Below are positions 18,732 through 45,303 of a stretch of DNA of 64,000 nt, piece after piece. The first letter of the stretch is position 1, and each line of letters starts with the position of its first letter. Both the position numbers and the translations under genes were made by a program. Origin of the DNA: a virus. The stretch covers positions 64,001 to 128,000 of the IMG/VR virus record IMGVR_UViG_3300009506_000001; one strand, written 5' to 3'. Below the pieces are notes generated by a model that had not been told where the DNA came from, ran no database searches, and saw only the letters and a list, made by a program, of their open reading frames with translations.

Positions 18732-19034
18732 ATGGCTAACTATGTAGACTTACTACTTGATAAAGACACTGGTAAAATAGTTGCCAAGGGTGGTGTCACT
18801 GGTGGTAGTGGTGGTGGTTCTGGTAAGGGATACCTCTATGAACAACTGGTAGCCGCAACGACATGGACAATAACACACGGACTTGCCTCTGACCAAGTTC
18901 TTGTGCAAGTCTACGATGAAGTTGGAGAAATGGTACTTCCCGACTCCATTGAGATCACAGATACAACAACCGTTACAATTACATTTCTTGATGCGATGGC
19001 TGGAACGGCTCATTTGATATTCTTTACGGTTTAA
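18732..19034 (+). CDS. Small virion protein with one ~70-aa TWTITHxL beta module
   Basis: TTWTITHGL...VQVYD...VTITF module shared with neighbours. Confidence 0.6.
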   Translation: MANYVDLLLDKDTGKIVAKGGVTGGSGGGSGKGYLYEQLVAATTWTITHGLASDQVLVQVYDEVGEMVLPDSIEITDTTTVTITFLDAMAGTAHLIFFTV

Positions 19035-19036
19035 TC

Positions 19037-20848
19037 ATGCAGATTAATGGCAATCTAAAATTTAGAACATTAGGCAAAGGTGAGTTGCAAAATGCAATCA
19101 TTGAACGCCTTGCATCTGCCCCAATAGGTGAACCGGGACGAATTTACTTCAATACGACCGATAATTTCTACTACTTCTTTGGTGCAGGTTCCCCAGCCGT
19201 ATGGGAAAAGATTGCACCAGGTTCTATTGCTAGTAACTTATTATTGGCGATGGGCTACGTAAATGTCGATGGTACATTCAATGCAAGTACATTTTCAACA
19301 TTCGCCGTTATTGGTTCACCAATCTCAAACCTAGTTGACGTACTACAGGCACTCGATTCACAATTCTGCCCTGCACTTTTGGATTTCTGCACTGTGGGAG
19401 CAACAACAGCAGCAGATCAGTTCTACTACAGTACCGCAGCTGGAACACTTGCTTTAGGAACAATAACAGCCGCAGGTCGTGCACTTGTTGACGACGCTGA
19501 CGCTGCCACGCAGCGTACGACACTGGGACTTGTTGCAGGAGGTGCAGGGGACATTTGGGTTGAGAAGGCTGGTGATACAATGACTGGTGTTCTATCGATG
19601 TCAACAGGCACATATATCACCATTCCTGATTTGCCCGCAAATCCAACCGATGCAACCAACAAAAACTATGTTGACCAGATTGCTTCTAGTATTCGTTGGC
19701 GTGAACCAGTTCAAGATCCAGATCTAGTAGATATTGTTTCAGCTGAACCGGTAGCTGATGTAACCGCAGTTGGTGATACTGTTACGTATATTAAGTGGGG
19801 TGGAACACAAGGTGAAATGTGGGGAGTTGGTTCTCCAGGTTCCGTTACAAATGTTGTAAATGGAGACATCCTTACATATAAACTTACAGATGCTGGAAGC
19901 CCGTTAGCTGGCACATGGGTCCGTATAGGAACTTTGGTAGCGGGCTCCCGTTTTATTATTGCTGCGGAGCATGGTCATATTCATTCGAGCCTCGCATTGC
20001 TTGGTTTCAACAACTATGATCTTATTGAATATGTAGATGGTGGTGGCTCACCAGGAACAAATCCTTACACAGCTGGTGCATGGACTCGTCCGGAGGGACT
20101 TGCAAATGTGGGTTCACCATCTCCAATAGATGGTTCACCAAACAACGAAATTCCTAATGGTACAACCGTACTGTGTAGTAACAGTCTTTCTTACCATGCT
20201 GGACATTCGTACTCCTATGACAGAATATCGGCTTCATGGATTGAAATATCAGGCCCAGGTGCTGTTCAGGCAGGCACTGGACTATCTTACAGTGGAAATA
20301 TTTTAAATGTAAACCTTGGTGCTGGTATTATTGAGTCACCAGCAGATGAAGTTGGTATTGATCTTTATGATACCGTAACAGGTGCAATTATTTTAACGAC
20401 AGATGGGACAACACGTTCAACAGCTGCAAATTCACAACTGCAACTACTGCTAACTCCATCGGGTGGATTGGTGCAGGATGCAACAGGCCTATCAGTTGAT
20501 CTTGCACTTGGTGGTTTGAATAATGTTACCGATACAGGTGCAGCCGCAGGCAATGTTCCAGTTGTATCAGACGGTAGCCCACTAGCATACACAGCTCAAG
20601 CACTACAGTTTAACTATGACTCGACCCTACACGGCGGTGCTGCAACAAGCCACACCATAACGCATAATTTGGGTCAGCAATTTGTGAATCCAACAGTATA
20701 CCTGCAGGACAGCAGCCCTCTGACATACAGACAAATTATTCCACAGAGTGTTACGTTGGATAGTGTAAACCAGCTAACTGTTACGTTTAACAAGGCAATC
20801 AACTGTGTGGTTGTGGTAATGGGTGTTCCAGGGGTGGGCCTAGCATAG
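19037..20848 (+). CDS. Tail fibre-like protein
   Basis: Gly/Thr-rich; VEKAGDTMTG and DATNKNYVD fibre motifs, AGTGL repeat, C-terminal THNL module; 8 GSP motifs. Confidence 0.7.
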   Translation: MQINGNLKFRTLGKGELQNAIIERLASAPIGEPGRIYFNTTDNFYYFFGAGSPAVWEKIAPGSIASNLLLAMGYVNVDGTFNASTFSTFAVIGSPISNLVDVLQALDSQFCPALLDFCTVGATTAADQFYYSTAAGTLALGTITAAGRALVDDADAATQRTTLGLVAGGAGDIWVEKAGDTMTGVLSMSTGTYITIPDLPANPTDATNKNYVDQIASSIRWREPVQDPDLVDIVSAEPVADVTAVGDTVTYIKWGGTQGEMWGVGSPGSVTNVVNGDILTYKLTDAGSPLAGTWVRIGTLVAGSRFIIAAEHGHIHSSLALLGFNNYDLIEYVDGGGSPGTNPYTAGAWTRPEGLANVGSPSPIDGSPNNEIPNGTTVLCSNSLSYHAGHSYSYDRISASWIEISGPGAVQAGTGLSYSGNILNVNLGAGIIESPADEVGIDLYDTVTGAIILTTDGTTRSTAANSQLQLLLTPSGGLVQDATGLSVDLALGGLNNVTDTGAAAGNVPVVSDGSPLAYTAQALQFNYDSTLHGGAATSHTITHNLGQQFVNPTVYLQDSSPLTYRQIIPQSVTLDSVNQLTVTFNKAINCVVVVMGVPGVGLA

Positions 20849-20861
20849 GATAAATATTAAG

Positions 20862-21524
20862 ATGGAAATATATGGTGACTTAAATTTTAAGGAGGTGGGA
20901 CAGTTAGTTGCAGCTGCACTTCAAGAAGAGAGCATGGCTCAGTTCCCAGATGCTGTTGCAAGCTTTGCTGTGGGTGCAATTAAGCAAGGTCGCCTTGCCT
21001 TCTTCAACAACCGTGTATGGATTGCAGTAATACTTACGGCAAATGGAAGTCCAGTTGAAGAAATAGCAACCTGGGTTCCAATCACCAATGAAATAAATGC
21101 ACACGTACATACACAGCCAGTAGCATCAACCCTGTGGACCGTTTCACACAATCTTATTGCTGGTACCCCTGCAGTTCAGGTCTATGACAATACTAATGAA
21201 ATGGTTATTCCAACAAACATAATTCCAATTGATAGCAACACAGTATCGATAGAATTTGATACACCTGTTTCTGGTCGTGCTATTGTGTTGAAAGGAATAT
21301 TTGATGGTAATCAACCTCAAGCACAGCTTTTTGCGTTTGAGGAAACAATCTCTGTAGCATCTAATACTTGGGTAATTGGTCATGGCCTAGGACGGTATCC
21401 AATCGTACGTGTATTCCTTGATACAAATGAAGAAATACAACCAGCATCAATTGTTCACGATAGTTTGATGCAAGTAACAATAACATTTAGCTCTGCACAA
21501 GTAGGTACAGTAAGGTTAGTATAA
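20862..21524 (+). CDS. Virion protein with two TWxxxHxL beta modules
   Basis: LWTVSHNL...VQVYD and TWVIGHGL...VRVF tandem modules; upstream TAAATA. Confidence 0.6.
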   Translation: MEIYGDLNFKEVGQLVAAALQEESMAQFPDAVASFAVGAIKQGRLAFFNNRVWIAVILTANGSPVEEIATWVPITNEINAHVHTQPVASTLWTVSHNLIAGTPAVQVYDNTNEMVIPTNIIPIDSNTVSIEFDTPVSGRAIVLKGIFDGNQPQAQLFAFEETISVASNTWVIGHGLGRYPIVRVFLDTNEEIQPASIVHDSLMQVTITFSSAQVGTVRLV

Positions 21525-21745
21525 TGCCACAGATTACTATTACAAAAGCATATACGGAAACCTTTGCAGCTTCTACAACTTGGGTTGTTCAGCATCGCCT
21601 GGGCACTATTGCTCCTGTTGTGGATTGTTGGTCAGGTGGTAGTCCAGATGAAAAGATGATGCCAGTTTCGGTTGTTGCAAATTCACCAAGCAAAGTGACG
21701 ATTACTTGGTCTGTACCAACAACAGGAAGGGTATATGTGGTTTAA
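21524..21745 (+). CDS. Small single-module virion protein
   Basis: TTWVVQHRLG...VTITW module; translationally coupled to the upstream gene. Confidence 0.6.
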   Translation: MPQITITKAYTETFAASTTWVVQHRLGTIAPVVDCWSGGSPDEKMMPVSVVANSPSKVTITWSVPTTGRVYVV

Positions 21746-21754
21746 GGATTTGAC

Positions 21755-21985
21755 ATGGTAGCAGGATACGATCATACACAGTCATCACCATCCACAACGT
21801 GGACGATTACGCACTCATTGGGGACAACTAATGTTGCAATCGATGCCATTTTGTCATACAATGGCTCGCCTGCCACAGTAGAAAAAGTTATTCCACTGCA
21901 TTTTATTGTGGTGGATGCAAATACAATTAAGGTTTTATTTTCAGCGGCTCAGAAGGGATATGCAAGAGTTGTTGGTGGGGTTTAA
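21755..21985 (+). CDS. Small single-module virion protein
   Basis: TTWTITHSLG...IKVLF module. Confidence 0.6.
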   Translation: MVAGYDHTQSSPSTTWTITHSLGTTNVAIDAILSYNGSPATVEKVIPLHFIVVDANTIKVLFSAAQKGYARVVGGV

Positions 21986-21999
21986 CGGAGGAAAGGATA

Positions 22000-22437
22000 A
22001 TGCTTTTTGATACAATTACGTACATAACTGGTGCCGATCACAACTACGATCTTGCAGGTAGTACGCTGCAGACGCCAACAGCTGGTAGTACAATAATGCG
22101 AATAACAGCTATACGAGCATTCTTGTTACCACAGAATCTTGTTGGTAGCGCAATCGATGCCCAAACAGGACCATCGTCCCCTGCTGGTTCGCCAATTAGC
22201 AACCTTGCTGTTGACATTCGTGTAAATGGTATTTCACAAGGAATATTCTCATTTACGGGCGTTGTTGGTAGTCCAATTCCAGCACTGAGTTCACTAATGT
22301 CGGCCGCAGATAGCATCACAGGAACATTGGCGTCAGGAGATGTTAGTGTTGCGGTTGGTGATATTGTGGAAATGGTGCTGAATACTGTTGCTAGTGCAGA
22401 TGCGATTTCGGTCACAATCAAGACTTTAGCTGCGTAA
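22000..22437 (+). CDS. Virion structural protein (beta-rich)
   Basis: Good RBS (ggagg), in the structural operon, 2 GSP motifs. Confidence 0.5.
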   Translation: MLFDTITYITGADHNYDLAGSTLQTPTAGSTIMRITAIRAFLLPQNLVGSAIDAQTGPSSPAGSPISNLAVDIRVNGISQGIFSFTGVVGSPIPALSSLMSAADSITGTLASGDVSVAVGDIVEMVLNTVASADAISVTIKTLAA

Positions 22438-22482
22438 ACCTCCTGGCATAAATACATAAAATACAGTTTAGGAGCTGATCAA

Positions 22483-23649
22483 ATGAAAGAAAGTTTACCG
22501 ATCGTCGTTGAGGGTCATGTTCACATCGAAGACGACCTTGGAAATGTCCTTTTGGACAAGAAGAATGCTGTGCATCCGCAGAATTTGGCCCGTGTCATAT
22601 CCCGTGCTCTTTCCAATGAAAGCAACTATTTCATCTATCGAATAGCATATGGAAATGGTGGAACCGTCGTTGATCCAACAGGTCTGGTCAACTTCAAGAC
22701 CCCAAACGATGGGCTTCCACCAGATCTTCAGGAATGGCGTTCCCGTTTGTACAATGAGACGTATTCGGAAATCATCGATGACAGCAATTCTAATATTGGT
22801 ATTGATCCAGGCTCCATTGGTACCTCTGTTTCCCGTCCAGGTGGTGGTTCAAACCCAGATGGCGATCCAGCAACAGTTACTCACGTTTCTGGCCCAGGTG
22901 TTCGTAGCCAAGAATTGGGTGTTCTATCACAGGTAGTTATTGCATCTACAATCAACCCAACAGAGCCAACAGGGCAGATTAGCTCCGACCTAGATCCAAA
23001 CCCTGGCACATCCGGTGACGCTGTTGAGAACACAGATGGTACGTTTGTGTTTGATGAACTTGGTCTATATACGACAGGTGCAGGTGCATCGGACAGTAAT
23101 GCTTACCACCAGATTGATGTTGGAGACAAAACCGCCCAAGATGATACCGGTCTCGTAAGTGGTACTACATATGACTTCCAGTATGATGCTGGTGCTGGTA
23201 CTGTTGTTACATCTGTGACACCAATAGGCACAGGTGGTGGCTCTCCAGCAGTTGTTACCTACCAAGATTTGATTGATGCATTGAATGCAGTGCTTCCATC
23301 AGGCCCTTCTGGTGTTGTTGCCTCCATCACAAACAATGAAGTTATCCCAACAGTTAACACATTTGGTTATCTACAGTTCACCACAAATGCAACTGGAGCA
23401 AGTGCAACGATAACTGTGAATAACACAGGTGCAACTCCACTATTCACGGCCCTTGGGCAGACTACACCTCTGACCAACAACGCACCAGTTGCTGGTGAAG
23501 ATGCAGGTGTTCAGAATAATGCGACGGCCCCTGCAACAGAGCGTGAGCGTTTGCTAACACACGTTATCTTCTCACCTGTTTTGAAGTCTGCAAATAGAAC
23601 ACTATCGATTACATATACACTAACTGTAAGTGTTGCTCGATCCTCATGA
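22483..23649 (+). CDS. Baseplate/tail-fibre attachment-like structural protein
   Basis: KKNAV...IAYGNGGT and FDELGLY...LLTHVIFSPVLKSANR...ITYTL motifs typical of phage collar/baseplate proteins; upstream TAAATA. Confidence 0.55.
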   Translation: MKESLPIVVEGHVHIEDDLGNVLLDKKNAVHPQNLARVISRALSNESNYFIYRIAYGNGGTVVDPTGLVNFKTPNDGLPPDLQEWRSRLYNETYSEIIDDSNSNIGIDPGSIGTSVSRPGGGSNPDGDPATVTHVSGPGVRSQELGVLSQVVIASTINPTEPTGQISSDLDPNPGTSGDAVENTDGTFVFDELGLYTTGAGASDSNAYHQIDVGDKTAQDDTGLVSGTTYDFQYDAGAGTVVTSVTPIGTGGGSPAVVTYQDLIDALNAVLPSGPSGVVASITNNEVIPTVNTFGYLQFTTNATGASATITVNNTGATPLFTALGQTTPLTNNAPVAGEDAGVQNNATAPATERERLLTHVIFSPVLKSANRTLSITYTLTVSVARSS

Positions 23650-24179
23650 CAGTATTAACGCTGCCATATGATCAAGCTCGTAGCTTAATCATTGACGGTG
23701 ATATTGTTTTCATTAAGGACAGCCCGAGTTGGGTAGGCAGTGTCATTCGCTTTTTCACCAAATCTAGATATTCCCATGTTGGTATTGCCTTTTGGATTAC
23801 TACGGGTGGTATAACACGGTTAATGATGGTTGAAGCACAGGGTGGAAGTCGTCGACGTATCGTAAATCTAAGCAAGTATGCTGGTGTGGAACTGGATATA
23901 ATGAAGGCACCAAAACCTTGGCCAGATGTTGCACCTCGTGCCTTGGAACACCTAAGTGATGTTCCGTATGGATATATGGAAGCAGCTTATATTGGAATAG
24001 TAGAGGCAATGCAACAGTATTTTGATGTTACACTTCCACGAAAGAATTTTAATGGTGAAATTTGTTCTGAATTTGTAGCCCGTGTTCTGGAGCTACCTTC
24101 CCAGCATGTTAGCCCACAAGCACTGATGGATCAGTTGGTTGAAATGGGCGTCAAGCCTGGCTTACTGGTGAGAGGGTAG
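23646..24179 (+). CDS. Permuted papain-like NlpC/P60 enzyme (YiiX/YebB-like)
   Basis: GDIVF, YSHVGI (His) precedes ICSEFVA (Cys). Confidence 0.8.
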   Translation: MTVLTLPYDQARSLIIDGDIVFIKDSPSWVGSVIRFFTKSRYSHVGIAFWITTGGITRLMMVEAQGGSRRRIVNLSKYAGVELDIMKAPKPWPDVAPRALEHLSDVPYGYMEAAYIGIVEAMQQYFDVTLPRKNFNGEICSEFVARVLELPSQHVSPQALMDQLVEMGVKPGLLVRG

Positions 24180-24217
24180 CCGAAACTACCCCCTCATTTC
24201 CCTGTAACTCCCGTCCC

Positions 24218-24613
24218 TTACTTCTTCGCAGGAGCTTTCTCAGCAGCAGGAGCATTGCGTGGAGCAATACGTGGTGCAGCAGCACCAATACGACCCATCT
24301 GAGGATTCATAACCTTACCACTTGGAGTTAGAACCTTAACATACTGGTGGAAATAGTCAAGTGAGTTTGCACCATTTCCAAGAGTAACATTGCTCATCAA
24401 ATCCCATAGCTCATACATGTGAGCGTTACGGTTGGTGATGATGCGGAACAAACGCTGCTTATCGATACCATCCATCTGGTCGAGACGGATGAAGTACAAG
24501 CCCGTGTTGGATTCCTTGACAACGGCAACCTCAGTGAGAATGCCCTGGCCTTCTAGATCTACCCAGCCAACATGTGGGTATTTTCCCTTGATTACATTAA
24601 TTGCTTCTGACAT
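24218..24613 (-). CDS. Hypothetical protein
   Basis: ATG at 24613 with aaggag RBS and upstream TAAATA; start shortened relative to the ORF track. Confidence 0.6.
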   Translation of the reverse strand: MSEAINVIKGKYPHVGWVDLEGQGILTEVAVVKESNTGLYFIRLDQMDGIDKQRLFRIITNRNAHMYELWDLMSNVTLGNGANSLDYFHQYVKVLTPSGKVMNPQMGRIGAAAPRIAPRNAPAAEKAPAKK

Positions 24614-24689
24614 TTTGTGTCTCCTTTGGTTGCGAATTAACAGTTTTTTGTTACCATTATTTAGAGACCGCAAAAGGAGGGGTTACCAA

Positions 24690-25922
24690 TTACCCAAGTT
24701 TAATTAGGCCGGAGGTATAGGAATTTGAGCTAGTTTGGGTCAAAACACTATTACGTAATCCTGGCGAACTGTCCGATTTTGTGCTGATGTGTATCCAGGG
24801 GTTTCTGGCAAACCATTCGAGGATCAGCTGATCAAACTTAATGTTATCTCGAATATATTGTGCACGGGAGTAGTAGGTATCACCAGTTGAGGCTGTTCCA
24901 TGAATGTCAAGGAACTGTATATCAGCAGCCTGCCCTAGGTCGTGTTGGCTACTACCGGAACCATTTCGCCATCCAGATGTAATTACCATTGTGTGTGTTG
25001 GTGTTGGACTACCGGCATCGATAGCAGTTAAACCATACGTGGTGTCATCACTATTTCTGTAGAGTGCGTATATTGGTTCAAGTACAGTATTAGCGAGATA
25101 GCAGAGGTTTCGAAGAATCTCTTTTTGTGTTAGTCCACACGCCTGTGTAACAGAGGATGTAAACTCATAGCTACTAACAAATGCATCAACAGTTAGATCT
25201 GCTAAAGTGAAATTAGCTGAGAGCTGCACCTCAGGCCACGTTCCAGGGGTTCGAGCCCAAGTTGCAAAGGTTGGTGGTTGTGGTGAACCAGTTGGGTGCG
25301 ATGCCCAGTTAAAATTATCGGGGAGTGCCTCAATCACAGCACATGTATAAGGAGTCGGTGTATTTGAGACCGTTGTATTATCTGTGGCAAGCACCTCAAC
25401 TGGTCGAGGTGTTGTATTGGGAGGTAGGTTAGGAGGTGAGCCAACATTTAGTGGATCGTCATTGTGGACAACGACATGTGCATCTGCTCGTGTAAAGTTT
25501 TCCTTTGTTTGAATCGTGTTCACATTTAAAGGAGACCCGTAAGGAAGAGCTGTTAGACCATCGGTACTACCGTACGAGTTCATTGGTGGATTGTGGTCAG
25601 CAATTGCACCAGCACCACCAGCACACAAAAATACATTGCTTGAACCACCAACACGAGTGTGTCCGCAAGAGTCCACATTTCCAGTAAAGTTTACTTTATC
25701 AGTTACACCAGCACCACCGGCAAAGACCGTTGGACAGCCTTGTTGTGTTACCCAGTTACCTGCACAGTGGATGTTGCCATGATCACAGGCACTGTCAGAG
25801 GTGCCAACGGAACCGTCAATGGCAACAAGCAGTGTATTTGCATAAACGGTTGTATTTGGCGATACATTATTAATTGCACCACCTGCACTATTGGCATCGC
25901 CTATTCGTTGAATTGCTGGCAT
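24690..25922 (-). CDS. PAAR domain fused to peptidase M15 (Zn D-Ala-D-Ala peptidase-like)
   Basis: N-terminal MPAIQRIGD...H..CGH...GSSNVF PAAR pattern; C-terminal ITSGWR...SQHDLGQAADI...WIHIS M15 motifs. Confidence 0.8.
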   Translation of the reverse strand: MPAIQRIGDANSAGGAINNVSPNTTVYANTLLVAIDGSVGTSDSACDHGNIHCAGNWVTQQGCPTVFAGGAGVTDKVNFTGNVDSCGHTRVGGSSNVFLCAGGAGAIADHNPPMNSYGSTDGLTALPYGSPLNVNTIQTKENFTRADAHVVVHNDDPLNVGSPPNLPPNTTPRPVEVLATDNTTVSNTPTPYTCAVIEALPDNFNWASHPTGSPQPPTFATWARTPGTWPEVQLSANFTLADLTVDAFVSSYEFTSSVTQACGLTQKEILRNLCYLANTVLEPIYALYRNSDDTTYGLTAIDAGSPTPTHTMVITSGWRNGSGSSQHDLGQAADIQFLDIHGTASTGDTYYSRAQYIRDNIKFDQLILEWFARNPWIHISTKSDSSPGLRNSVLTQTSSNSYTSGLIKLG

Positions 25923-25981
25923 GGTTTCTCCTGGTCAATAAATATATTTATCAGGGAAAGACACATTCAAAGGAGTTGAAT

Positions 25982-26377
25982 ATGGAAAAGGGTAATAAAA
26001 TGGCAGATATAGATTCGTGGCGGAAATTTCATCTTGCGATCGCTGAGTGGATTGATGCCTGGCGTTTGATTCCTCGTGCGGTGGTTATTTTGTTTGGGTT
26101 CGGTGCCGCTCACGTTACGAAATGGTATATGGGTTTGCATCCATATATTCTTGAGGGATGTGTTGAAGCTGGTGGGAAGGTTTCTGAGTGTATCGTCCAG
26201 GCACCCACAACACAGCATACAGCGCTGCTTTCTGCATTGTTTGCATTGGCAGCAGCTGTGTTTGCATTCTATTCAAATGCAGGTCGTAAGTGGAACGGAT
26301 TCAGTCACTGGAACAAACCAGAGAGCAAAGAACGTAAGGCACCAAAGCCACAGGATGACGAACCAAGTGGTGGTTAA
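25982..26377 (+). CDS. Two-TM membrane protein, possible holin
   Basis: aaggag RBS before ATG 25982, two hydrophobic segments, charged C-terminus, late promoter upstream. Confidence 0.5.
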   Translation: MEKGNKMADIDSWRKFHLAIAEWIDAWRLIPRAVVILFGFGAAHVTKWYMGLHPYILEGCVEAGGKVSECIVQAPTTQHTALLSALFALAAAVFAFYSNAGRKWNGFSHWNKPESKERKAPKPQDDEPSGG

Positions 26378-27366
26378 CGGCTAAGCAGGTCCGTGAACTG
26401 TTCTAAATTTTCGGCAATCTTGGACATTTCATATTTGCCCAAGAACTTCATGAACTGAAAGTAGTTGAACTTGCCAGGATTCTCGACTTCTTTGAGAATT
26501 TCGGTGAACATTGCTGCACGGATGTTTTCGGGCTGGTTGCGTAGATTCATCAGCAGCATGCCTTCGTTGAGCATATCCTTCACAACACGCTCTACAGGCT
26601 GTCCATCTTTTGTGTCTGTCCATGTCTCGTGGAGCAGTTTGTTCCGCTCATAATCATCTTCATACGCTTTCAGAATACGTGTCCAACGGATGCCAGGACG
26701 TGCTGACTGAACATGATCGCCAGCATCACCTTTGAGACCCTTGCACCACAGGAAGAAATCCACAGACTTGTGGTCTTCGGGAATGTTGATCTTACCAGTT
26801 TTGTCTTTGAGACAATCACGGATTGCACTTTCAATCGTGATTTGTTTGCCATCGAAAGGATCATATTGAACGACGTTCGGGAAGAACGTATCACGTCCTC
26901 GGCCAAGGTTCTGGGCAAGATCTCGGTCACGGCTGACAATGATGATCTCATCTTCGCCATCTTCGCCGTAAGCCTCTACGAAACCTGCAACCAGATCGTC
27001 CGCCTCGAGTTCGTTACCAGCAAGACAAATAACGCTGGTGTGCTTCCGCATTAGGTCTTCGAATTCGTCAACGTGTTCTTTGAAGCGTTCGAACTTCTCC
27101 TGCTCCTTTGGTGTCATGTTGAGACGACGGTTGCCCTTGTACTTTTTCGAGGTTAGAGCCTCCTCAGATGCGGTGTATGTCTTACGCCAACTGTGCCGGT
27201 CGAATGCCATCACAACACGGTCAGGACGAAACTTCTTGTAGAACTTGTTCATGCTCATTAGTCCTGTGTGGTGAGCAAGCCCAGTACTTGTGTCTACATC
27301 GTGCTGTTTGTTAGCGAAGAACGTACGGTATAGCACGTTCGAAATATCAAAAACAAGGTACTTCAT
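26374..27366 (-). CDS. rnh: 5'-3' exonuclease / T4 RNase H-like
   Basis: VFDISN, YKGNR, EADDLVA, IVSRDRDL and KGDAGD motifs of the FEN/5'-nuclease family. Confidence 0.85.
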   Translation of the reverse strand: MKYLVFDISNVLYRTFFANKQHDVDTSTGLAHHTGLMSMNKFYKKFRPDRVVMAFDRHSWRKTYTASEEALTSKKYKGNRRLNMTPKEQEKFERFKEHVDEFEDLMRKHTSVICLAGNELEADDLVAGFVEAYGEDGEDEIIIVSRDRDLAQNLGRGRDTFFPNVVQYDPFDGKQITIESAIRDCLKDKTGKINIPEDHKSVDFFLWCKGLKGDAGDHVQSARPGIRWTRILKAYEDDYERNKLLHETWTDTKDGQPVERVVKDMLNEGMLLMNLRNQPENIRAAMFTEILKEVENPGKFNYFQFMKFLGKYEMSKIAENLEQFTDLLSR

Positions 27367-27946: not shown

Positions 27947-27947
27947 C

Positions 27948-28652: not shown

Positions 28653-28684
28653 TGTTATTATCTCTTATTGTTAGTTTGGTCTTA

Positions 28685-32211: not shown

Positions 32212-32213
32212 CT

Positions 32214-35749: not shown

Positions 35750-35750
35750 T

Positions 35751-36851: not shown

Positions 36852-36911
36852 AGTGAGTTCCTTATATAAACCAATTCGTTTATATTTATGGTTTTAGACG
36901 TTCTTACTCAC

Positions 36912-36938
36912 AAAAAGAAACCCGCAGATGCGGGTTTC
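36912..36938 (-). terminator. Rho-independent terminator
   Basis: gaaacccgca-tct-gcgggtttc hairpin followed by a T run on the - strand. Confidence 0.8.
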
Positions 36939-36966
36939 AGAACAGAATGCGAAATCTATGATTGCA

Positions 36967-37296: not shown

Positions 37297-37555
37297 CGCC
37301 CTCGGCCTCGTTTGCGGCATCGACCCCTGCTCCAGCCTTTTCCTCTTCGGCCTGCATAACGACTGCAGCAATCTGGTTAGCGAGACCCTTCATGGCTGTC
37401 TGGGCCATCATCATGTCGGAACGGAACTCAAGCTCCTTCTGCTTCCAGTCGTCGTAGAAGGCGACCAGCTGCTGAGCTTCGGCGGGAAGGGACTCGACCA
37501 CAAGCGTCTTGCCTTCGATGGTTACAACTTTGGTTTCTTCTGCGTGTAGTTTCAT
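37289..37555 (-). CDS. Hypothetical protein
   Basis: ggag RBS and own sigma70-like promoter. Confidence 0.65.
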   Translation of the reverse strand: MKLHAEETKVVTIEGKTLVVESLPAEAQQLVAFYDDWKQKELEFRSDMMMAQTAMKGLANQIAAVVMQAEEEKAGAGVDAANEAEGDA

Positions 37556-37579
37556 TATTATCTCCTGTTGCGTTTAACT

Positions 37580-37608
37580 ACTATACAATGGTTTTGTTTC
37601 TTTGTCAA
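37580..37608 (-). promoter_or_regulatory. Sigma70-like promoter TTGACA-17-TATAGT
   Basis: Near-consensus boxes. Confidence 0.8.
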
Positions 37609-38933
37609 CCGTTGATCGATGACATCAATCCTAACAAATTGTTACCACTGTTATCTATGTCAGAATCTTCTGGTGTTTCCTTTGGTTTTCCGCCCTTTGG
37701 TGGTAAGTTAAGATTATTTGGGTCTGTGATTCGTAGTGTGACTTTGTTATAGTCGAGGTAGATTGTTTGACCAACACCATCGCTGGAACGTGTTTTGAGA
37801 AACTTCAAAGCCATCTCACCCTTTGCTCTCATTGCGTCTGTCATTAGGATGCTAACGTAAACGTCAGTGGTATTGATCTTACTGATACCACCAGCAATGT
37901 GACTGTGATTGACTTCCGTTGCAGTAACAGCACCACGATTCTGCTGGGATGCTGTAATACCAACAGCGTTGTAGTCGTTTGCTATTTCACGAAGCTCTTC
38001 TGATGCTCGCTTATCTTTCTCGTGGATATTGTCGGCTGAGATCTTCTCATTTGAACCCATCAGATCGATGTAGTCGATCGCAATAACGTCCGGGATGAAT
38101 CCATTCTTCAACTCGAACTCTTTTAGGTATGCTCGAATCTGGTTGCTTGTTGCACCCTGTGACATACGCTTGATGAACAACGAGCCAGACTTATCACCCG
38201 CACAGTTAATGCGGTGTGCAACTTCGTCCTTTTGCCTCTGCCAGTCTCTCGTACCAACGCCTGCGACCATTGCAATGTAGCGTTGGTAAATCATTTCCTC
38301 AGACAACTCTAGACTAATATAGAGAGCGTTTAGTCCACGCTCGACATAGTTGAGAGCTAGGTTTGCCATAACGATCGACTTACCGCCACCTGAGTTAGCA
38401 GATAGTAGGAGCAACTGCTTACGAGCAAGACCACCACCAAGAACGTCATCAAATTCTTTCCAGCCAGTTGGCTCGTAAATTTCTGCGGTTAAAAGACGTT
38501 CAAGAGTCTTATTGACATCGTCAAATAAACTCGTACCCAAATCTTTCTGGAGGGAGATCAAGAGGGCATTCGTAACAAGGGTTTGAATGCCAGGAAACTC
38601 TTTCTCATTGCCGCTCTCATAAATTTCGGCGGCGTTCATTATAGCCTTTCTTAGGGCTTTGTCACGACAAAACCTTTCAACCTCGTTGGAACAGTAATCA
38701 ACTTTGTCTCGGGTTATATTGTCGTGGAGAGCAAACGCCTGGCCTGTTTCAGCGGCGATCTGTTGAGGTGTAGGTAGACTATTGTAGTCATTGTAGTACT
38801 CCTGAATAAACTTGACAGAGTCACGAGCCTCTGGGTCAAAGTATTCAGGTTGAATAATTGTAGTACACTTTGCGAAGACGTCGACCGACGATAGCATGTA
38901 CTCAATAAGCAAGATTTGCTTTTTCAGATTCAT
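37605..38933 (-). CDS. Replicative DnaB-like helicase (gp41-like)
   Basis: Walker A ANSGGGKS, YISLELSE, IDYIDLM and TASQQNR motifs. Confidence 0.93.
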   Translation of the reverse strand: MNLKKQILLIEYMLSSVDVFAKCTTIIQPEYFDPEARDSVKFIQEYYNDYNSLPTPQQIAAETGQAFALHDNITRDKVDYCSNEVERFCRDKALRKAIMNAAEIYESGNEKEFPGIQTLVTNALLISLQKDLGTSLFDDVNKTLERLLTAEIYEPTGWKEFDDVLGGGLARKQLLLLSANSGGGKSIVMANLALNYVERGLNALYISLELSEEMIYQRYIAMVAGVGTRDWQRQKDEVAHRINCAGDKSGSLFIKRMSQGATSNQIRAYLKEFELKNGFIPDVIAIDYIDLMGSNEKISADNIHEKDKRASEELREIANDYNAVGITASQQNRGAVTATEVNHSHIAGGISKINTTDVYVSILMTDAMRAKGEMALKFLKTRSSDGVGQTIYLDYNKVTLRITDPNNLNLPPKGGKPKETPEDSDIDNSGNNLLGLMSSING

Positions 38934-38964
38934 AGCGTTCCTTATCTTATTATTGTGTGGAACA

Positions 38965-38993
38965 ACTATACTGTGCTAGGAGATGTAAATCAA
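38965..38993 (-). promoter_or_regulatory. Sigma70-like promoter TTGATT-17-TATAGT
   Basis: Upstream of the helicase gene. Confidence 0.65.
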
Positions 38994-40042
38994 CTGATTT
39001 CACGTATAGGAGGATACGTTGAATCAATAACGGTATCGAACGCAAACAGCTCACGACCCGAAACAAATAGGGACAATTCTGCGTTGGCAGCAGTAATCTT
39101 ACTTGCATCAATGACTTGGTTTTTAACCTTATCAATGTTCGTGTATGGGTCTAGTCCAAGAAGCACATACACTTCTCGAGCTCCAAGACCCCTTGGTCCT
39201 GGTGGAGTGCCTGTGCTGTCGGTGTCAAGGGAACTAAAGTAGAACGATGAACCATCAGGTAGGGTTCCATCGGTCATTTCAGGTATGAGTGCATCGAACG
39301 TTCGAACCTTGTATCGCTTACCCTGAATGAGAATGGTTCCATAATCATCCCAAGGCGAATCAACGCTCGGTAGTGTTCCAATGTTGTATGTCTGGACAAG
39401 GCTGGTTAATCCATCCGGAGACTTATAGGTAATGTCCAGCGATATGCTGTTAGGTTCAGGGATAACATCGTTGAGAGTTGCAACTGTAAGAAGCGTCCCT
39501 GTCGCAGTTAGCTGGAACTGCTCGGCAGCTGTTGTAGTTGTTGTTTCAACAACACCGGTCGATGTTGATCGGGCAATCATCTGTGCTAGACCGGACTGTG
39601 GGTCTGGGAAATGAATGATCAGGTTGTTTGCATCAACAATCTCAATGGTGAAATTTGTAGTTTCAATCTGAGTCTGAGCTTCCGTTGTGCCACGCAGTGC
39701 ACATGAGACGGTGTTGTCCGTATCAACAGATGTTGCAGCTGTGCTATTAATGAGCACCTGAACCGAAGGCACAACGCCCATGTTGTGATTGACAAACCAA
39801 TCTGTAGCAGCCACAGATTGTGTGTGGTTGTAGAGAGCACGCCGGGCTGAGTAGTCAGTCAGCCCGGGAACCCGTGCTGGTAAATCTCCACGAAGGTAGT
39901 CCTGTTTCCGGCCAATGCGATACAATTCACCACGACAGCCTTCTGTGATGGTGCAACGTTGCACTACCTCAAGGCCATACTTGTTTTCAGGAATTTCAAT
40001 TTCCCTTTTACATACGGTGCATTTGTAGTCAATGACAGCCAT
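38990..40042 (-). CDS. Hypothetical protein: N-terminal Zn ribbon plus the HxL/M-G beta module found in tail proteins
   Basis: CTVC...C....C at the N-terminus; TDWFVNHNMGVVPSVQV module. Confidence 0.55.
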   Translation of the reverse strand: MAVIDYKCTVCKREIEIPENKYGLEVVQRCTITEGCRGELYRIGRKQDYLRGDLPARVPGLTDYSARRALYNHTQSVAATDWFVNHNMGVVPSVQVLINSTAATSVDTDNTVSCALRGTTEAQTQIETTNFTIEIVDANNLIIHFPDPQSGLAQMIARSTSTGVVETTTTTAAEQFQLTATGTLLTVATLNDVIPEPNSISLDITYKSPDGLTSLVQTYNIGTLPSVDSPWDDYGTILIQGKRYKVRTFDALIPEMTDGTLPDGSSFYFSSLDTDSTGTPPGPRGLGAREVYVLLGLDPYTNIDKVKNQVIDASKITAANAELSLFVSGRELFAFDTVIDSTYPPIREIS

Positions 40043-40051
40043 TAAATATCC

Positions 40052-40339
40052 TTATTTGGCTAGAGCAATACTTGTGGTCTGCTCCAGATATGGCTTTTCA
40101 GCGTCTGTGGAAGGTTCCATTGGATCAACAGCAAGTGCAGCCTTACGAATGGTGATGTCACCATCAATGTTTGTTGCTAGGAATGGGGCCATTGCCATGC
40201 CCATCTGTTGTGGACCAGTCTGGACCATCTGGATGGCTCGGACCTTGGATAGTGTGAGGGTAAACTCATCGTCGCTCTCGATACGACCAATGATTTCTTC
40301 ACCGGAAAGTAGCTTCATGGAACGGATTTCTTGTGACAT
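40052..40339 (-). CDS. Small protein, possible Sm-like fold
   Basis: KLLSGEEIIGRI motif; upstream TAAATA and ggag RBS. Confidence 0.5.
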   Translation of the reverse strand: MSQEIRSMKLLSGEEIIGRIESDDEFTLTLSKVRAIQMVQTGPQQMGMAMAPFLATNIDGDITIRKAALAVDPMEPSTDAEKPYLEQTTSIALAK

Positions 40340-40360
40340 AATTATCTCCTGTTTGTATAT

Positions 40361-40618
40361 TTATATGCGGATGCCTATTGCATAAAAATCAAAAGGGAAC
40401 AAGCCAATCTGCATCCAAAGCAATGAATATTCCTTTTGATAGAAGGCGTAACCAGACCAGATGAGGTGTGTTCCTAGAAACAAACAATATGGGATTGCAC
40501 TGTGGGCAGCCATAAATGGCGACACACTAATAATACAGGCAGCCGTCAGCATCATTACGGTAGCCAAGCCCTTCAATAGACCATGTCCGTTGAATCGTTC
40601 CTTGGAAGATTGAGTCAT
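40361..40618 (-). CDS. Small membrane protein
   Basis: Three hydrophobic segments in 85 aa. Confidence 0.55.
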   Translation of the reverse strand: MTQSSKERFNGHGLLKGLATVMMLTAACIISVSPFMAAHSAIPYCLFLGTHLIWSGYAFYQKEYSLLWMQIGLFPFDFYAIGIRI

Positions 40619-40622
40619 ATTC

Positions 40623-40991
40623 TTATTCTTTTGATTTTAGTTGTTTTCTTCTTTGTTGAGCTTTTTGACGCTGTTTCGCAATACGATCAGCGTGCTGAGA
40701 ATTATCCTTTACTTCTTTGGATGAATCAACTAGCTCGCCCTCGTGGACCACAGTAACCGACTTTTTCAGAGCACGGTCAAACACTTCTTGCTCTTTTGGG
40801 GTGAGCTCTTTGGGTGGTTTTGTTCGGAGTTGGCGACGCTGCCTTGGTCGTGGAGGATGTTCCAAAAGTTTAAATATGGTCAGTGGTTTAGTAGGAAGAC
40901 CATCCCTTTCCCGCCGGGCATTTTCTCTGCGTTCTTGGCGTGTTTTGATTTTGGCTTCTTCGGTGGTTTCTACAAAAACTACTTTACTCAT
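40623..40991 (-). CDS. Basic hypothetical protein
   Basis: Arg/Lys-rich 122-aa ORF in operon. Confidence 0.55.
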   Translation of the reverse strand: MSKVVFVETTEEAKIKTRQERRENARRERDGLPTKPLTIFKLLEHPPRPRQRRQLRTKPPKELTPKEQEVFDRALKKSVTVVHEGELVDSSKEVKDNSQHADRIAKQRQKAQQRRKQLKSKE

Positions 40992-41559
40992 AATCCTTTA
41001 AATCCTGTAATAGTGTTTCGTAACTGGATGTGCTGTCCCTACGAATGGCATAGCAATATGGGATGTTGTAGAGAATAATCTCCGAACCGTGCTCGATTCC
41101 TTCGTGGAGATTTTCACGTGTGTATGTATATTTGAGGACCTGTTCCATCAGCTGGTTGTTGCCGTGAAATTGGGATAAGATCGCATCAAATGCTTCCATA
41201 TAATCGGTGCTAGAATTGGTCACTTCCAGGCTATACATAAACTCAAACCCATTGATTGGAAATATATAAAATGGTTCTTTGTCATTTGTTTCAGCTATGA
41301 ACGAAGTGGGTCCATTGGCAAACATTGCCCGTTGCCGTAAGTTTGGAATATCGTCAAACGCTTCGTTAAACGTCTTTGCAAACTGGTCTTTGCCCTTTTG
41401 TTTGCGGCGGCGCAACTTCACTTTTTGGAAATCTTCGTAGCGTGATGGAAGGTTTTTAAGCAGTGGAAGTCCTTCGGCCATTTTCAGATAGGCTGAACAC
41501 TCCGCAACGACCGGGTGTACCTTTTTGGATTTGCCGTGTAATACTTCGTCTAAATTCAT
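40984..41559 (-). CDS. Hypothetical late protein
   Basis: Likely start MNLDEVL at 41559, just downstream of a - strand TAAATA. Confidence 0.6.
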   Translation of the reverse strand: MNLDEVLHGKSKKVHPVVAECSAYLKMAEGLPLLKNLPSRYEDFQKVKLRRRKQKGKDQFAKTFNEAFDDIPNLRQRAMFANGPTSFIAETNDKEPFYIFPINGFEFMYSLEVTNSSTDYMEAFDAILSQFHGNNQLMEQVLKYTYTRENLHEGIEHGSEIILYNIPYCYAIRRDSTSSYETLLQDLKDYE

Positions 41560-41625
41560 TTGTTTGACCCTCAAAGGGTATTTATCCTTTTCATAAATAC
41601 GAAGACACCAAGGAGACTGCACTCA

Positions 41626-44175
41626 ATGAAGCATTATGGAATTGTTAACCCCGAAGGATCAATTATCATCAACCCTGTTGTTCCTTCGGGAACAAGTGAC
41701 CCTACCCAACCAGACACGGGTGAGTTATTCTTTCGGACTGATTCGAGTCGTTTGCAAGTATATGGTGGGGGATCTTGGGATAGTCTAATTCCATCAACCG
41801 AACTGTCTACTTTATACGGACCGTTGGCCGCCGACAACTCGTGGGCAGGTATTAACTCATTTCTGCAACCAGTTCTGATTAACGATCCCGTTCTTTCCAT
41901 TCTTGAAATTCGAGCAACAACAGCACCCTCGGATTCCGCATTTCAAGGTATGATTACAAAGCGGTACGATGGAACGCATCGTGGATTCTTTGGTAGCGTT
42001 CCAGGTGACGTGTCCGGATATGCTTACATTGCCACTTGGGACGACACTGGCAGCCCACAGGGTTGGAATAAAATTTTTGCGGGTTATCCAAACTCTAATG
42101 AGTTGAAGCTTGGAACGGGCAATGATTTTTACTTCAATGATATTCTTGTTGCAATGGCTGGCTCCACAAATACATTTACAGCAGCTAATACGTTTTCCAC
42201 ATCCTACGCTGTCACGGATCAAAGATTCTGGGACGGCGTTGATTCTTCTGGTGGTATTGTTATTGAGCAGGAGACCTCTAACAGCTACTCAATAGCATAC
42301 AACGACGATGGCGTCGGTAGTCTTTTTAATTCAACGTTAGCAGCTGTCAAGATTAGCTTCAACTCCTCAAATGGTTTCACTATTTCTGCACGACCACCAG
42401 CTGGTTCTCCAACGAGTGTATACACACCTGTATTTTATGCAAACCATGGATCCCAACTGCTTGCACTTGGTGCGAACCTCCAGTATGGTGGTGATAACGT
42501 TGCACTTGAGTCCCGTGCAAACTTATTCAAAGTTGGACAGACACTATATCATAACAACCCATCACTCAATTGGTTTGATACAGCAACTGTAGATCAAAAC
42601 TTTACAGCATATGTCCAAAGTGGTGTGTTCAACCTTCGTGGTATGTTGGACAGTTTTGTAACAACAGCCTTTACACCACTCAAAGTAGACTACAATGCTG
42701 ATACTCTTTACATTCAAAGTGGTGATATTACATTTAATGGTACATCTTTGCTAACAGGCGGCCTGCTGAGTAATCTTGCAGATGTTGATCTAACTGGTTC
42801 ACCTCCTCCACAGGTTGATGATATTCTCTACTATGCAGATGGTTCTCCTCCAACGTGGAAATTCAAAACACCAATCAAGAATGCATTGCTTCCTTATCAG
42901 TATACCGCAACAGCAGGACAGACAACGTTCAGTGGCACCGATGATAAAGGTATCACACTTGTGTATACACCAGGCTACTTGATGGTATTCCGGAATGGTA
43001 TCTTGCTCGATCCAGATGACTACACAGCAACAGATGGCACGAGCATTGTACTTGGTGCAGCTGCAAGCCTGAATGATACTATCAACATTGTTGGCTTTGG
43101 TACTTTTGATGTTGCCAATACTTACACGAGGACAGAGGCGGATGCAACATTTGCTCCTATTGCAAGAGCAAAACCAAACCTTATTATCAATGGTGACTTT
43201 CGTGTGTGGCAACGAGGTACATCGTTCGCAGCCGCTGTTGGTGTTTATACGGCAGACCGATGGAAGCAAGGTGGAAACCACGACGGTGCTATCACTGTCC
43301 AGAAAACTTCCACATACCTTGAAGTGGATGTAACAACCGCTGACACATCCATTGGGGCAGGACAGTACTGCCAGATGTTGTACGGCATTGAGGGATATGA
43401 TGTAGAGTTCTTGGGTTGGGGTACAGCAGACGCAAAAGATGTAACTCTTTCTTTCAAGCATGCTCACACAAAGACAGGAACATACTGTGTAAAGATTGGT
43501 AACGCTGCTGCAAATAGATCCTACATTGCAGAATACACCCAGGGTGTTGCTGACACTTGGGAAACATCCACTATTACTATTCCTGGTTGCACGGATGGTA
43601 CGTGGGAGGTAACAACCTCTGCTGGTATCTATATTGTATTCACTTACGCTGCTGGTAGCAACTATCAACTTCCTGGTAGTCCTCAACCAACCAACTCCTG
43701 GGAGGTAGGCAACTACCTCGCTTCGACTAATCAAGTAAATGCTCTGGATAGTACAAGCAACTATTTGAGATTTGATAAAGTGAAACTTGAAGAAGGTTCC
43801 ATTGCAACAGATTTTGAGCCAAGACCATTTAGTGAAGAACTCACTTTGTGTCAAAGGTACTACCAGAAATCGTACGAACAGGGAACGGCTCCTGGTAGTG
43901 TCACCGCCAATGGTGCTTGGAACTTGGCTGCGGACCGTGCTGCCTTGGTCCAATACATTAGTGAACCATTTTTGGTGATGATGAGAACAACACCAACGTT
44001 TGCTGTATATGGAACAACAGGAACAAGCAATGAGATTACGGGGGTTGATTCGGCAAGCCTTACTTTTAGCACTTTTGCTGCAACCGAAAGAGGAATCCAG
44101 AATGTTGCTGCAACTGCAGCATTTACAGCCACAGACAGATACCGCTTACATTGGACAGCAAATGCTGATTACTAA
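41626..44175 (+). CDS. Tail fibre protein
   Basis: ggag RBS before ATG 41626; GELFFRTD, LSNLADVD, YTATAGQTTF and NLIINGDFRVWQRGT fibre motifs. Confidence 0.8.
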   Translation: MKHYGIVNPEGSIIINPVVPSGTSDPTQPDTGELFFRTDSSRLQVYGGGSWDSLIPSTELSTLYGPLAADNSWAGINSFLQPVLINDPVLSILEIRATTAPSDSAFQGMITKRYDGTHRGFFGSVPGDVSGYAYIATWDDTGSPQGWNKIFAGYPNSNELKLGTGNDFYFNDILVAMAGSTNTFTAANTFSTSYAVTDQRFWDGVDSSGGIVIEQETSNSYSIAYNDDGVGSLFNSTLAAVKISFNSSNGFTISARPPAGSPTSVYTPVFYANHGSQLLALGANLQYGGDNVALESRANLFKVGQTLYHNNPSLNWFDTATVDQNFTAYVQSGVFNLRGMLDSFVTTAFTPLKVDYNADTLYIQSGDITFNGTSLLTGGLLSNLADVDLTGSPPPQVDDILYYADGSPPTWKFKTPIKNALLPYQYTATAGQTTFSGTDDKGITLVYTPGYLMVFRNGILLDPDDYTATDGTSIVLGAAASLNDTINIVGFGTFDVANTYTRTEADATFAPIARAKPNLIINGDFRVWQRGTSFAAAVGVYTADRWKQGGNHDGAITVQKTSTYLEVDVTTADTSIGAGQYCQMLYGIEGYDVEFLGWGTADAKDVTLSFKHAHTKTGTYCVKIGNAAANRSYIAEYTQGVADTWETSTITIPGCTDGTWEVTTSAGIYIVFTYAAGSNYQLPGSPQPTNSWEVGNYLASTNQVNALDSTSNYLRFDKVKLEEGSIATDFEPRPFSEELTLCQRYYQKSYEQGTAPGSVTANGAWNLAADRAALVQYISEPFLVMMRTTPTFAVYGTTGTSNEITGVDSASLTFSTFAATERGIQNVAATAAFTATDRYRLHWTANADY

Positions 44176-44187
44176 TAAGGAACAACA

Positions 44188-45303
44188 ATGAGTAAAAACC
44201 AAGAAGCTGCAGAAAGAGCATATAAAGAAACCTCAAATCCAAATATCATTATCAATGGCGATATGCGTGTTGCTCAACGAGGCACATCCTTTCCAGCAAT
44301 AACAAGTACGTATCACCTTGACCGCTGGACCTATGGAGCAAATAGTGATGCAGTTGTAACTATTAGCCAGGGGACAAATACTCCTGGTGGTTCACCACAG
44401 AATCTTTGTCCCTTTACCAAATACCTTGAATTGGATGTTACAACAGCGGATGGATCATTGTCAGCAGCACAATACAGCCACATATTGTATAATGTAGAAG
44501 GAAACGACGCTGAAATCCTCGCTATGGGTTCCTCCCTCGCTAAAGAGTTTACGATATCGTTCTGGCACGCCCATACGAAGACAGGTACACAATCAATAGC
44601 AGTCCGCAATAATGGTGGGTCACGGTCGTATGTTGCAGAGTACACACAGTCGGTAGCAGATACTTGGGAATATACGGAGATAACAATTCCTGGAGATACA
44701 TCTGGCGCTTGGACAACTGGAACAACTCTTGGATTGAGTCTTATTTTTACTCCTGGCACTAGTAGCACATATGCTGGAACTCCTGGTTTGTGGTTGAGTG
44801 GCAACTACATTGGATCTACCGGTCAAGTAAACAATCTGGATAGCACTAGTAACTTTTTCCGCATCACAGGTGTCAAGCTGGAAGTTGGGGGGTATGCCAC
44901 ACCTTGGGCACATCGTCCTTTTGCAGAGGAGTTGGCGTTGTGTCGTCGTTATTTTCAAACAAGCGACGCATACGGCACTGTGCCTTCAAATGGCGGACAG
45001 AATACAGTACAAAATGCCACTGTCGCTTACACAACTGTAGCAGGTCGGTGCCTAATAGTCCTACCAGTTGAGATGCGTACAAATCCAACAATGACTTACT
45101 ACCATCCCTTGAACGGATATTCGGGGTCTCCTGGGCAGGATGGTCATTGGCAGTATTATAACTCTGGTTACAATGATACAACCTCTGCCGTATCAACAGC
45201 AACAGGCAACACAAAGGTGATTTCGGTACAAATGCCTGGGTCTTACACAGTCAATGACAGTATGCTGACTATTGGCTCTTGGTCAGCATCCGCTGAACTA
45301 TAA
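44188..45303 (+). CDS. Tail fibre / receptor-binding protein, paralog of the upstream fibre C-terminus
   Basis: NIIINGDMRVAQRGT...HAHTKTGT...RSYVAEYTQ...EELALCRRYFQ aligns to the upstream gene. Confidence 0.8.
   Translation: MSKNQEAAERAYKETSNPNIIINGDMRVAQRGTSFPAITSTYHLDRWTYGANSDAVVTISQGTNTPGGSPQNLCPFTKYLELDVTTADGSLSAAQYSHILYNVEGNDAEILAMGSSLAKEFTISFWHAHTKTGTQSIAVRNNGGSRSYVAEYTQSVADTWEYTEITIPGDTSGAWTTGTTLGLSLIFTPGTSSTYAGTPGLWLSGNYIGSTGQVNNLDSTSNFFRITGVKLEVGGYATPWAHRPFAEELALCRRYFQTSDAYGTVPSNGGQNTVQNATVAYTTVAGRCLIVLPVEMRTNPTMTYYHPLNGYSGSPGQDGHWQYYNSGYNDTTSAVSTATGNTKVISVQMPGSYTVNDSMLTIGSWSASAEL

Follow-up and report, generated by a model that had tools for sequence, protein, structure and literature searches.

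Short sequons mark the acceptor sites of a number of protein glycosylation systems, such as N-x-S/T in N-glycosylation and D-S/T-hydrophobic in the O-glycosylation of the Bacteroidetes, and the Maf enzymes (PF01973), which O-glycosylate flagellin, are not known to follow a strict sequon and accept threonine. The present analysis deals with an exact tripeptide, Gly-Ser-Pro (GSP), which recurs in the tail, baseplate, and fiber proteins of a distantly T4-like jumbo myovirus, represented by the 155,245-bp IMG/VR virus record IMGVR_UViG_3300009506_000001 (G000; CheckV completeness 44%). The window is a stretch of 64,000 nucleotides (nt), bases 64001-128000 of this record, and the positions given below are those of the window, except where another record or the whole record is named.

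Like the short sequons, GSP is an exact motif of three residues that appears to lie in flexible, exposed segments, turns over rapidly between lineages, and is under selection where it is present. As proposed here for the tail proteins, the Maf flagellin O-glycosyltransferases are cytoplasmic enzymes, which modify serine or threonine on the exposed parts of the filament protein prior to its assembly. The known general O-glycosylation systems are periplasmic, whereas the tail proteins assemble in the cytoplasm. The one case of virion glycosylation encountered in the literature searched is that of the mycobacteriophages, in which the glycans are attached at the C-terminal ends of the capsid and tail-tube subunits (Freeman et al. 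2023, as cited in PMC12619734), and the phage glycosyltransferase genes are known. The two cases are alike in that they concern the structural proteins of a phage, the exterior of the particle, and a lineage-specific post-translational modification, for which the present phage offers candidate sites only. They differ in that the candidate sites here are an exact internal tripeptide in the loops of the tail, baseplate, and fiber proteins, with none in the major head protein, and in that no transferase gene was found on this record, which is 44% complete. No description of a GSP motif or sequon in phages was found in the literature searched.

GSP is the most over-represented tripeptide of the genome, with 73 copies versus 9.7 expected (z = 20.4), while the runner-up reaches a z of only 6.8. 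The structural blocks hold 72 of the copies, where 5.8 would be expected, and the remaining 27,933 residues hold a single one, in a doubtful open reading frame (ORF) of 59 amino acids (aa), versus 4.1 expected, which does not amount to a significant avoidance of the motif in the non-structural proteins (P = 0.08). All 38 copies in the window fall within 12 ORFs of the baseplate and fiber clusters, which encode tail, baseplate, and fiber proteins. The motif is absent from the major head protein, the portal, the terminase, and the replication enzymes, and the proteins that bear it span different places in the tail (sheath, neck, baseplate, and fibers) and many unrelated folds.

The motif is also strict at all three of its positions. 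Within the 26 hosting proteins, in which 4.4 copies would be expected, the residue that precedes Ser-Pro is glycine in 73 cases, with the next-commonest residue reaching six, the residue between glycine and proline is serine in 73 cases and threonine in nine, and the residue that follows Gly-Ser is proline in 73 cases, with 11 for the next-commonest. The positions flanking the tripeptide are almost unconstrained in these proteins. The same three residues in the other five orders occur three to 10 times each, and the near-equivalent turn formers are similarly scarce, with nine copies of G-T-P, two of G-A-P, one of N-S-P, and two of D-S-P.

The conservation of the motif can be seen in a sister phage, IMGVR_UViG_3300009506_000021 (L001, G001; 20% complete), which is syntenic with this record and has 77% amino-acid identity. 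The sister carries 21 GSP in its baseplate locus, versus 1.6 expected, and 11 in its other 47 kb, versus 2.3 expected, all of the latter in fiber genes. In the baseplate genes, 19 of the 24 window sites are kept in the sister, while identity over the ten flanking residues is only 61%, which would predict the conservation of 23% of the triplets (p = 9e-9). The GSP sites are also closely associated with changes in length, given that 12 of 24 lie within four columns of an indel relative to the sister, in comparison with 8.8% of the other tripeptides (odds ratio 10, p = 3e-7). Most of the unshared baseplate sites (5 + 2) coincide with indels, and at least one, residue 253 of a 388-aa baseplate protein, is a point difference, while the extra GSP sites in the fibers of the sister lie inside insertions of nine and approximately 100 residues.

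The enrichment is restricted in its lineage. Searches of IMG/VR with the 388-aa protein, the gp6-like protein, and a 603-aa fiber-like protein recovered 19, 80, and 36 loci, respectively, of which the sister record is the only one enriched in GSP, with no enrichment in the 18, 80, and 35 other, more distant loci. Xanthomonas phage XacN1, which has the nearest annotated homologues of the 388-aa protein and of the giant protein (33-40% identity), has no GSP in the approximately 4,200 residues of its locus, and no close cultured relative was found in INPHARED (megablast of 6.9 kb, 0 matches). Among 150 cluster representatives of the homologues of the 603-aa protein, eight have 5-14 GSP and 132 have none or one, so that the distribution is bimodal, and the GSP-rich homologues have only a minority of their sites in common with this phage. 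One GSP-rich relative (L113, ENA ERZ27264644 k141_22362) has the same gene order (giant protein, 752, 325, 102, and 76 aa, fiber), and three of its proteins bear 7, 11, and 9 GSP.

In the baseplate cluster, a beta-sandwich module of approximately 70 aa can be aligned in six copies, with invariant histidine, leucine, and proline residues. These copies are found in the 100-aa, 73-aa, and 76-aa proteins, at the C-terminus of the 603-aa protein, and twice in a 220-aa protein. The original prediction, based on 14 quoted strings, all of which are present in the genes to which they were assigned, had proposed that GSP was added at a turn of this module, and the alignment bears this out. The loop between V-x-V-Y-D and E-x-v-x-P has three residues in three GSP-free copies, including the 100-aa protein (18732-19034, + strand; PHROG 21918/16122), which consists of one module without GSP and serves as the short-loop reference. 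The same loop has five residues in the 73-aa single-module protein (21524-21745, +), where it contains GSP39 (nt 21638-21646), and nine in the 76-aa single-module protein (21755-21985, +), where it contains GSP37 (nt 21863-21871). Both sites are kept in the sister phage, the latter with two synonymous codon changes.

A second recurrent structure, an aromatic-x-G-x-x-W hairpin, is present in five clear copies, with a six-residue turn in four of them. The proposal that GSP was inserted into this hairpin holds for the N-terminal hairpin of the 603-aa protein, which has three extra residues, including the motif, and for residue 428 of an 871-aa fiber, which is three residues longer than its homologue in a GSP-rich relative (L112, described below). 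It fails for residue 2631 of a 3016-aa virion protein, where comparison with the XacN1 homologue reveals no insertion and which is doubtful as an example of the same hairpin. The best case, which did not form part of the original list, is the GSP62 of the 220-aa protein, located within an insertion of 6-8 residues at the tip of a hairpin of the same kind.

This 220-aa protein (20862-21524, +) has the hairpin, with GSP62 at nt 21045-21053, ahead of two modules that lack the motif. In its family (85 sequences, 32-85% identity), the insertion with GSP62 is found only in the homologues with at least 51% identity, while the insertion of the intermediate relatives is shorter and GSP-free, and the distant ones show only a minimal turn. 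The module-2 loop, which is short in this phage, bears GSP in several relatives, and the equivalent loop does so in the 73-aa and 76-aa paralogues. In a maximum-likelihood tree of the family, from which the trait columns were left out, all of the insertion-borne GSP fall within a single clade of 22 rows (approximate likelihood-ratio support, SH-aLRT, 91), within which there were at least four changes of state at the hairpin site and at least five at the module-2 site, for a total of at least nine. The 62 rows beyond this clade have minimal loops, and two of them have a chance GSP at the conserved G-x-P of a turn, with no insertion.

Further cases come from the other genes of the cluster. The 603-aa fiber-like protein (19037-20848, +), which combines the N-terminal hairpin with the C-terminal module, has eight GSP, at residues 51, 93, 265, 287, 337, 359, 366, and 513 (nt 19187, 19313, 19829, 19895, 20045, 20111, 20132, and 20573). 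When compared with approximately 65 homologues per site, six of these sites have a gap fraction of 0.2-0.6, versus a median of 0.04 for the protein, while at sites 93 and 513 the motif replaces other residues of an aligned turn, in the latter case a conserved glycine turn. Seven of the eight sites are common to the sister phage, and the other, site 265, lies within a five-residue insertion that is absent from the sister. A 145-aa protein (22000-22437, +) has GSP63 and GSP90 (nt 22186 and 22267), both of which are kept in the sister, and has no homologue at a greater distance to serve as an outgroup. The 388-aa baseplate protein (22483-23649, +; PHROG 11259) has a single GSP, at residue 253 (nt 23239-23247), where the sister reads S-S-P, a Gly/Ser point difference beside indels, and XacN1 has the same length, which together indicate a substitution in an indel-prone loop.

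The spike-tip protein (24690-25922, - strand; 410 aa), with its PAAR and M15-peptidase domains (its homologues carry PF05488 and PF08291), belongs to a family in which the same tripeptide also occurs as a structural element. A canonical PAAR strand, G-S-P-x-V-F, is present at one fixed column in 17 of 45 aligned family members, where it is a conserved element of the fold. In this phage and in the nearest homologues of its protein, by contrast, that column reads G-S-S, which may be a matter of chance or may mean that the tag is avoided where it would be buried, and the four GSP (residues 129, 161, 212, and 304; nt 25530, 25434, 25281, and 25005) lie in other columns, which are variable, in linker insertions. 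The columns of sites 129 and 304 are occupied in 0-2% of 43 homologues, and site 161 is a substitution in a hypervariable linker.

The motif is also present in the fibers. The long tail fiber (41560-44175, +; PHROG 4492) has 871 aa from a TTG start, with GSP at residues 164, 282, 413, 428, and 706 and a receptor-binding C-terminus resembling a carbohydrate-binding module (CBM), although the sister orthologue points to the ATG at 41626, rather than the TTG at 41560, as the probable true start. The four N-terminal GSP sites are common to the 801-aa fiber of the sister, with which approximately 500 N-terminal residues are shared, while the C-terminal receptor-binding domain differs, so that a domain swap must have occurred. 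The adjacent 371-aa paralogue (44188-45303, +), a CBM-like jelly roll with GSP68 and GSP313 (nt 44389 and 45124), is 47% identical to the C-terminus of the 871-aa fiber, and each GSP of either protein lies opposite a gap in the other, as the original prediction had claimed when it held that the two paralogues carry the motif at different places. Within this domain, the columns under the three GSP are occupied in 1-53% of 120 homologues, versus a mean of 92-94%. Occupancy is 1% at site 706 of the longer fiber, and GSP68 and GSP313 each reach a gap-fraction percentile of 0.99.

When the 25 sites located between positions 18732 and 45303 are pooled, 15 are insertions, one is borderline (PAAR site 212), four are substitutions, and five have no outgroup. 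Homologue families are available for 16 sites, which have an average gap-fraction percentile of 0.85, a value reached by none of 200,000 uniform simulations, and 10 of the 16 are above 0.9. The proposal that the motif had been gained repeatedly and independently in loops, as a selected tag rather than a requirement of the fold, is thus supported, except that four of the sites arose by substitution and not by insertion. In a similar way, alignment with the homologues of related phages revealed lineage-specific insertions at 15 of the 25 sites, and in most cases the homologues of non-enriched phages have neither the motif nor the added residues, with PAAR site 212 as an exception. This evidence on the loop insertions is the main comparative argument that the selected role of the motif is one of recognition, and not of folding.

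The structural models point in the same direction. In the AlphaFold model of the 220-aa protein (mean confidence, pLDDT, 84), which has no significant Foldseek match, GSP62 lies in the coil 60-66, between strands 51-59 and 67-73, with the module loops 110-113 and 187-190 likewise modeled as coil between strands. In that of the 371-aa fiber (pLDDT 87, template-modeling score, pTM, 0.85), GSP68 lies in the coil 64-77 and GSP313 in a low-confidence coil, 306-321, and the insertion of the 871-aa paralogue maps to the loop that precedes strand 202-204. The fold of the latter model matches the CBM4 and CBM11 carbohydrate-binding modules and the CBA120 TSP4 tailspike, so that the GSP loops would belong to a receptor-binding jelly roll. 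All three of the modeled sites are thus assigned to coil by DSSP, and it is on the coil of these two models that the putative surface location of the GSP loops is based.

The comparisons show that GSP has been conserved while its flanks drifted and has been gained or lost repeatedly, and they support the view that it is kept by selection and is not an element of the fold. It is probable that the motif is a selected tag, acting at the level of the protein, and we infer a protein that reads it. More tentatively, at somewhat less than an even chance, this reading would involve a covalent modification of the serine specifically. With the same reserve, GSP may represent the acceptor sequon through which uncultured jumbo phages modify serines across the whole virion, in a serine-specific system that is as yet undescribed and probably one of O-glycosylation. 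The three strict positions, the use of serine and not threonine, and the many unrelated tail folds favor an enzyme that would act on the serine hydroxyl in the cytoplasm, as does the absence of the motif from the head shell, portal, and cytoplasmic enzymes, and the choice of serine over threonine points to the active site of an enzyme rather than to a generic turn.

In the mechanism proposed, selection would plant and keep GSP in the turns and loops of the tail, baseplate, neck, and fiber proteins that face outward. Most copies would be brought in by small insertions, specific to a lineage, which extend the tips of beta-hairpins and the ends of beta-sandwich modules and leave the fold undisturbed. 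The glycine would provide freedom of the backbone, and the proline would lock the serine at the apex of the loop. The reader would most likely be a cytoplasmic serine-directed transferase, probably a glycosyltransferase, which would modify the serine hydroxyl before or during the assembly of the tail, and the outcome would be a coat on the tail and fibers. This enzyme may belong to an unrecognized or highly divergent family, and its gene may lie either in the host or in the part of the phage genome that the record lacks.

Four other explanations of the motif must be weighed against this one. A signal in the DNA, such as a nine-nucleotide site for recombination, methylation, or insertion, with the peptide merely incidental, might be suspected from the recurrence of GGTTCACCA, the commonest coding form, at seven of the 38 window sites. 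The 38 copies are nevertheless encoded by 23 different 9-mers, with serine codons of both the TCN and AGY types, and at the 24 sites shared with the sister (fiber genes included) 30 of the 72 codons differ synonymously while the peptide is kept. GSP is also restricted to one reading frame of the structural genes. The diversity of the codons effectively refutes a motif at the DNA level, which was rejected. It is improbable, in turn, that GSP is merely a favored turn former, or a by-product of loops rich in glycine, serine, and proline, that nothing reads. These residues do form turns, the hosting proteins are rich in glycine, serine, and threonine, a few of the sites are simple substitutions at conserved glycine turns (residue 513 of the 603-aa protein), and many PAAR homologues have the structural G-S-P-x-V strand. 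Any such preference should extend to G-T-P, G-A-P, N-S-P, D-S-P, or the other orders of the three residues, however, none of which is enriched, and the homologous loops of more than 130 related loci lack the motif. In addition, the tripeptide is conserved far beyond its flanks, and the canonical PAAR position reads G-S-S in this phage.

In the two remaining alternatives, the motif is read, but the serine is not the residue modified. GSP might be a non-covalent docking motif, with its loops bound by a decoration protein, an assembly chaperone, or a component of the host surface, and its serine left unmodified. The exactness, loop position, conservation, and lineage restriction of the motif apply equally well to this explanation, which is also favored by the lack of a transferase on the record, but a motif of only three residues offers very little for specific binding, the many unrelated folds and tail places are more compatible with an enzyme than with a structural partner, and no candidate binder was identified, so that docking seems unlikely, if the least so of these four. 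The modification of the proline, through its hydroxylation by a phage oxygenase resembling prolyl 4-hydroxylase (P4H), possibly as a step toward glycosylation, is the more doubtful of the two, and is rated slightly below even the turn former. The record does encode a P4H-like 2OG-Fe(II) oxygenase (2OG, 2-oxoglutarate) of the PF13640 family, a 198-aa accessory gene located beyond the window (G000:C1:140692-141288; L024:13693-14289, -), and the chlorovirus PBCV-1 reportedly encodes a prolyl 4-hydroxylase that acts on the proline-rich repeats of the virus. In the GSP-rich sister, by contrast, only 66 bp separate the orthologues of the two flanking genes, an interval that holds no such gene, and no orthologue of the oxygenase was found in 13 related records, which makes prolyl hydroxylation unlikely and led to this oxygenase being largely rejected as the reader. 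The strict requirement for serine would also be left unexplained.

A number of observations weigh against the view of GSP as a selected tag that a protein reads. An outgroup is available for 20 sites, and in four of these the motif arose by substitution in an existing turn or linker, namely at residues 93 and 513 of the 603-aa fiber-like protein, residue 161 of the 410-aa spike-tip protein, and residue 253 of the 388-aa baseplate protein. Site 212 of the 410-aa protein reads GSP in seven homologues as well (39-50% identity), one of them from a non-enriched record, which indicates that this site is older than the enrichment. The search for a modifying enzyme in the 155-kb record recovered no member of PF01973 (Maf/MptE), PF00535, PF00534, or PF01075 (glycosyltransferase families 2, 1, and 9), and no such enzyme was found among the approximately 50 ORFs scanned against Pfam, including the neighboring genes. 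This is weak evidence of absence, given that the record is only 44% complete. Lastly, the related IMG/VR record IMGVR_UViG_3300019487_000019 (G003), in which a 958-aa ORF (G003:C1:78367-81243; L150) contains a clear Maf-like domain (64 bits), is not rich in GSP (10 copies versus 12 expected), and its most over-represented tripeptides, GGG, GTG, and GGA, are glycine-rich.

That record provides the sole PF01973 match among 22 GSP-poor related records, the family being absent from the other 21, of which six are at least 90% complete. No PF01973 was found in the sister phage either (20% complete). A further trace of the family is found in the GSP-rich relative L112 (JGI 3300022542 contig Ga0247412_1027991), which was retrieved independently, the fibers of which have 13 and 4 GSP, and which encodes, a few kilobases from these genes, a 206-aa protein (L112:26429-27049, -) with a sub-threshold match (E = 4e-5, 23.9 bits versus a cut-off of 34.6), for which no close relatives were found in IMG/VR. 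No clear transferase is present in the neighborhoods examined in either L112 or L113. The present phage and its sister differ from the Maf systems in that no PF01973 match was found in their incomplete records, with a match below the threshold in one GSP-rich relative and a Maf-like domain in a record that is not GSP-rich, and the link with this family is best regarded as a lead, and not as an association. In the XacN1 locus (L111; AP018399.1 209269-222423), the homologue of the 388-aa protein lies beside genes annotated as a glycosyltransferase of family 9, a carbamoyl transferase, and a glycosyltransferase, but GSP is missing from the entire locus. Should the baseplate of XacN1 be modified, the signal must be a different one.

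The remaining content of the record is that of a large phage, with functions in structure, replication, and nucleotide metabolism alone among the approximately 80 ORFs scanned against Pfam and PHROG. The genes identified include those of gp5-, gp25-, and gp6-like baseplate proteins, the 3016-aa virion protein, the tail sheath, the neck protein, a gp15-like sheath stabilizer, the major head protein, the portal, and the terminase, together with those of gp32, a RecA/UvsX homologue, DNA polymerase B, a DnaB-like helicase, topoisomerase II, and ribonucleotide reductase. Within the baseplate cluster, a 177-aa gene (23646-24179, +) has only weak matches, one to the C92 permuted papain-like amidases (19.7 bits, which falls short of the cut-off) and the other to a crotonase-like PHROG. 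The replication genes are accompanied by a cell-wall hydrolase (PF07486; 32214-32810, -), a putative ATP-dependent zinc protease domain (PF05618; 33466-34371, -), and a ClpP-like protease (59815-60510, -), all of which are ordinary in large phages. Beyond the window, there are genes for a Thg1-like tRNA-His guanylyltransferase and for PhoH (G000:C1:130158-131006 and 133183-133971).

Should GSP prove to be a sequon of this kind, it would be the first strict, portable signal of three residues for the modification of phage particles. The motif would then predict the exposed surfaces of the virion, the enzyme could be found by phylogenetic profiling, and such a short tag might be useful for the decoration of engineered proteins. 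The finding would also mean that phages can evolve a coat by scattering tiny loop insertions over their existing folds.

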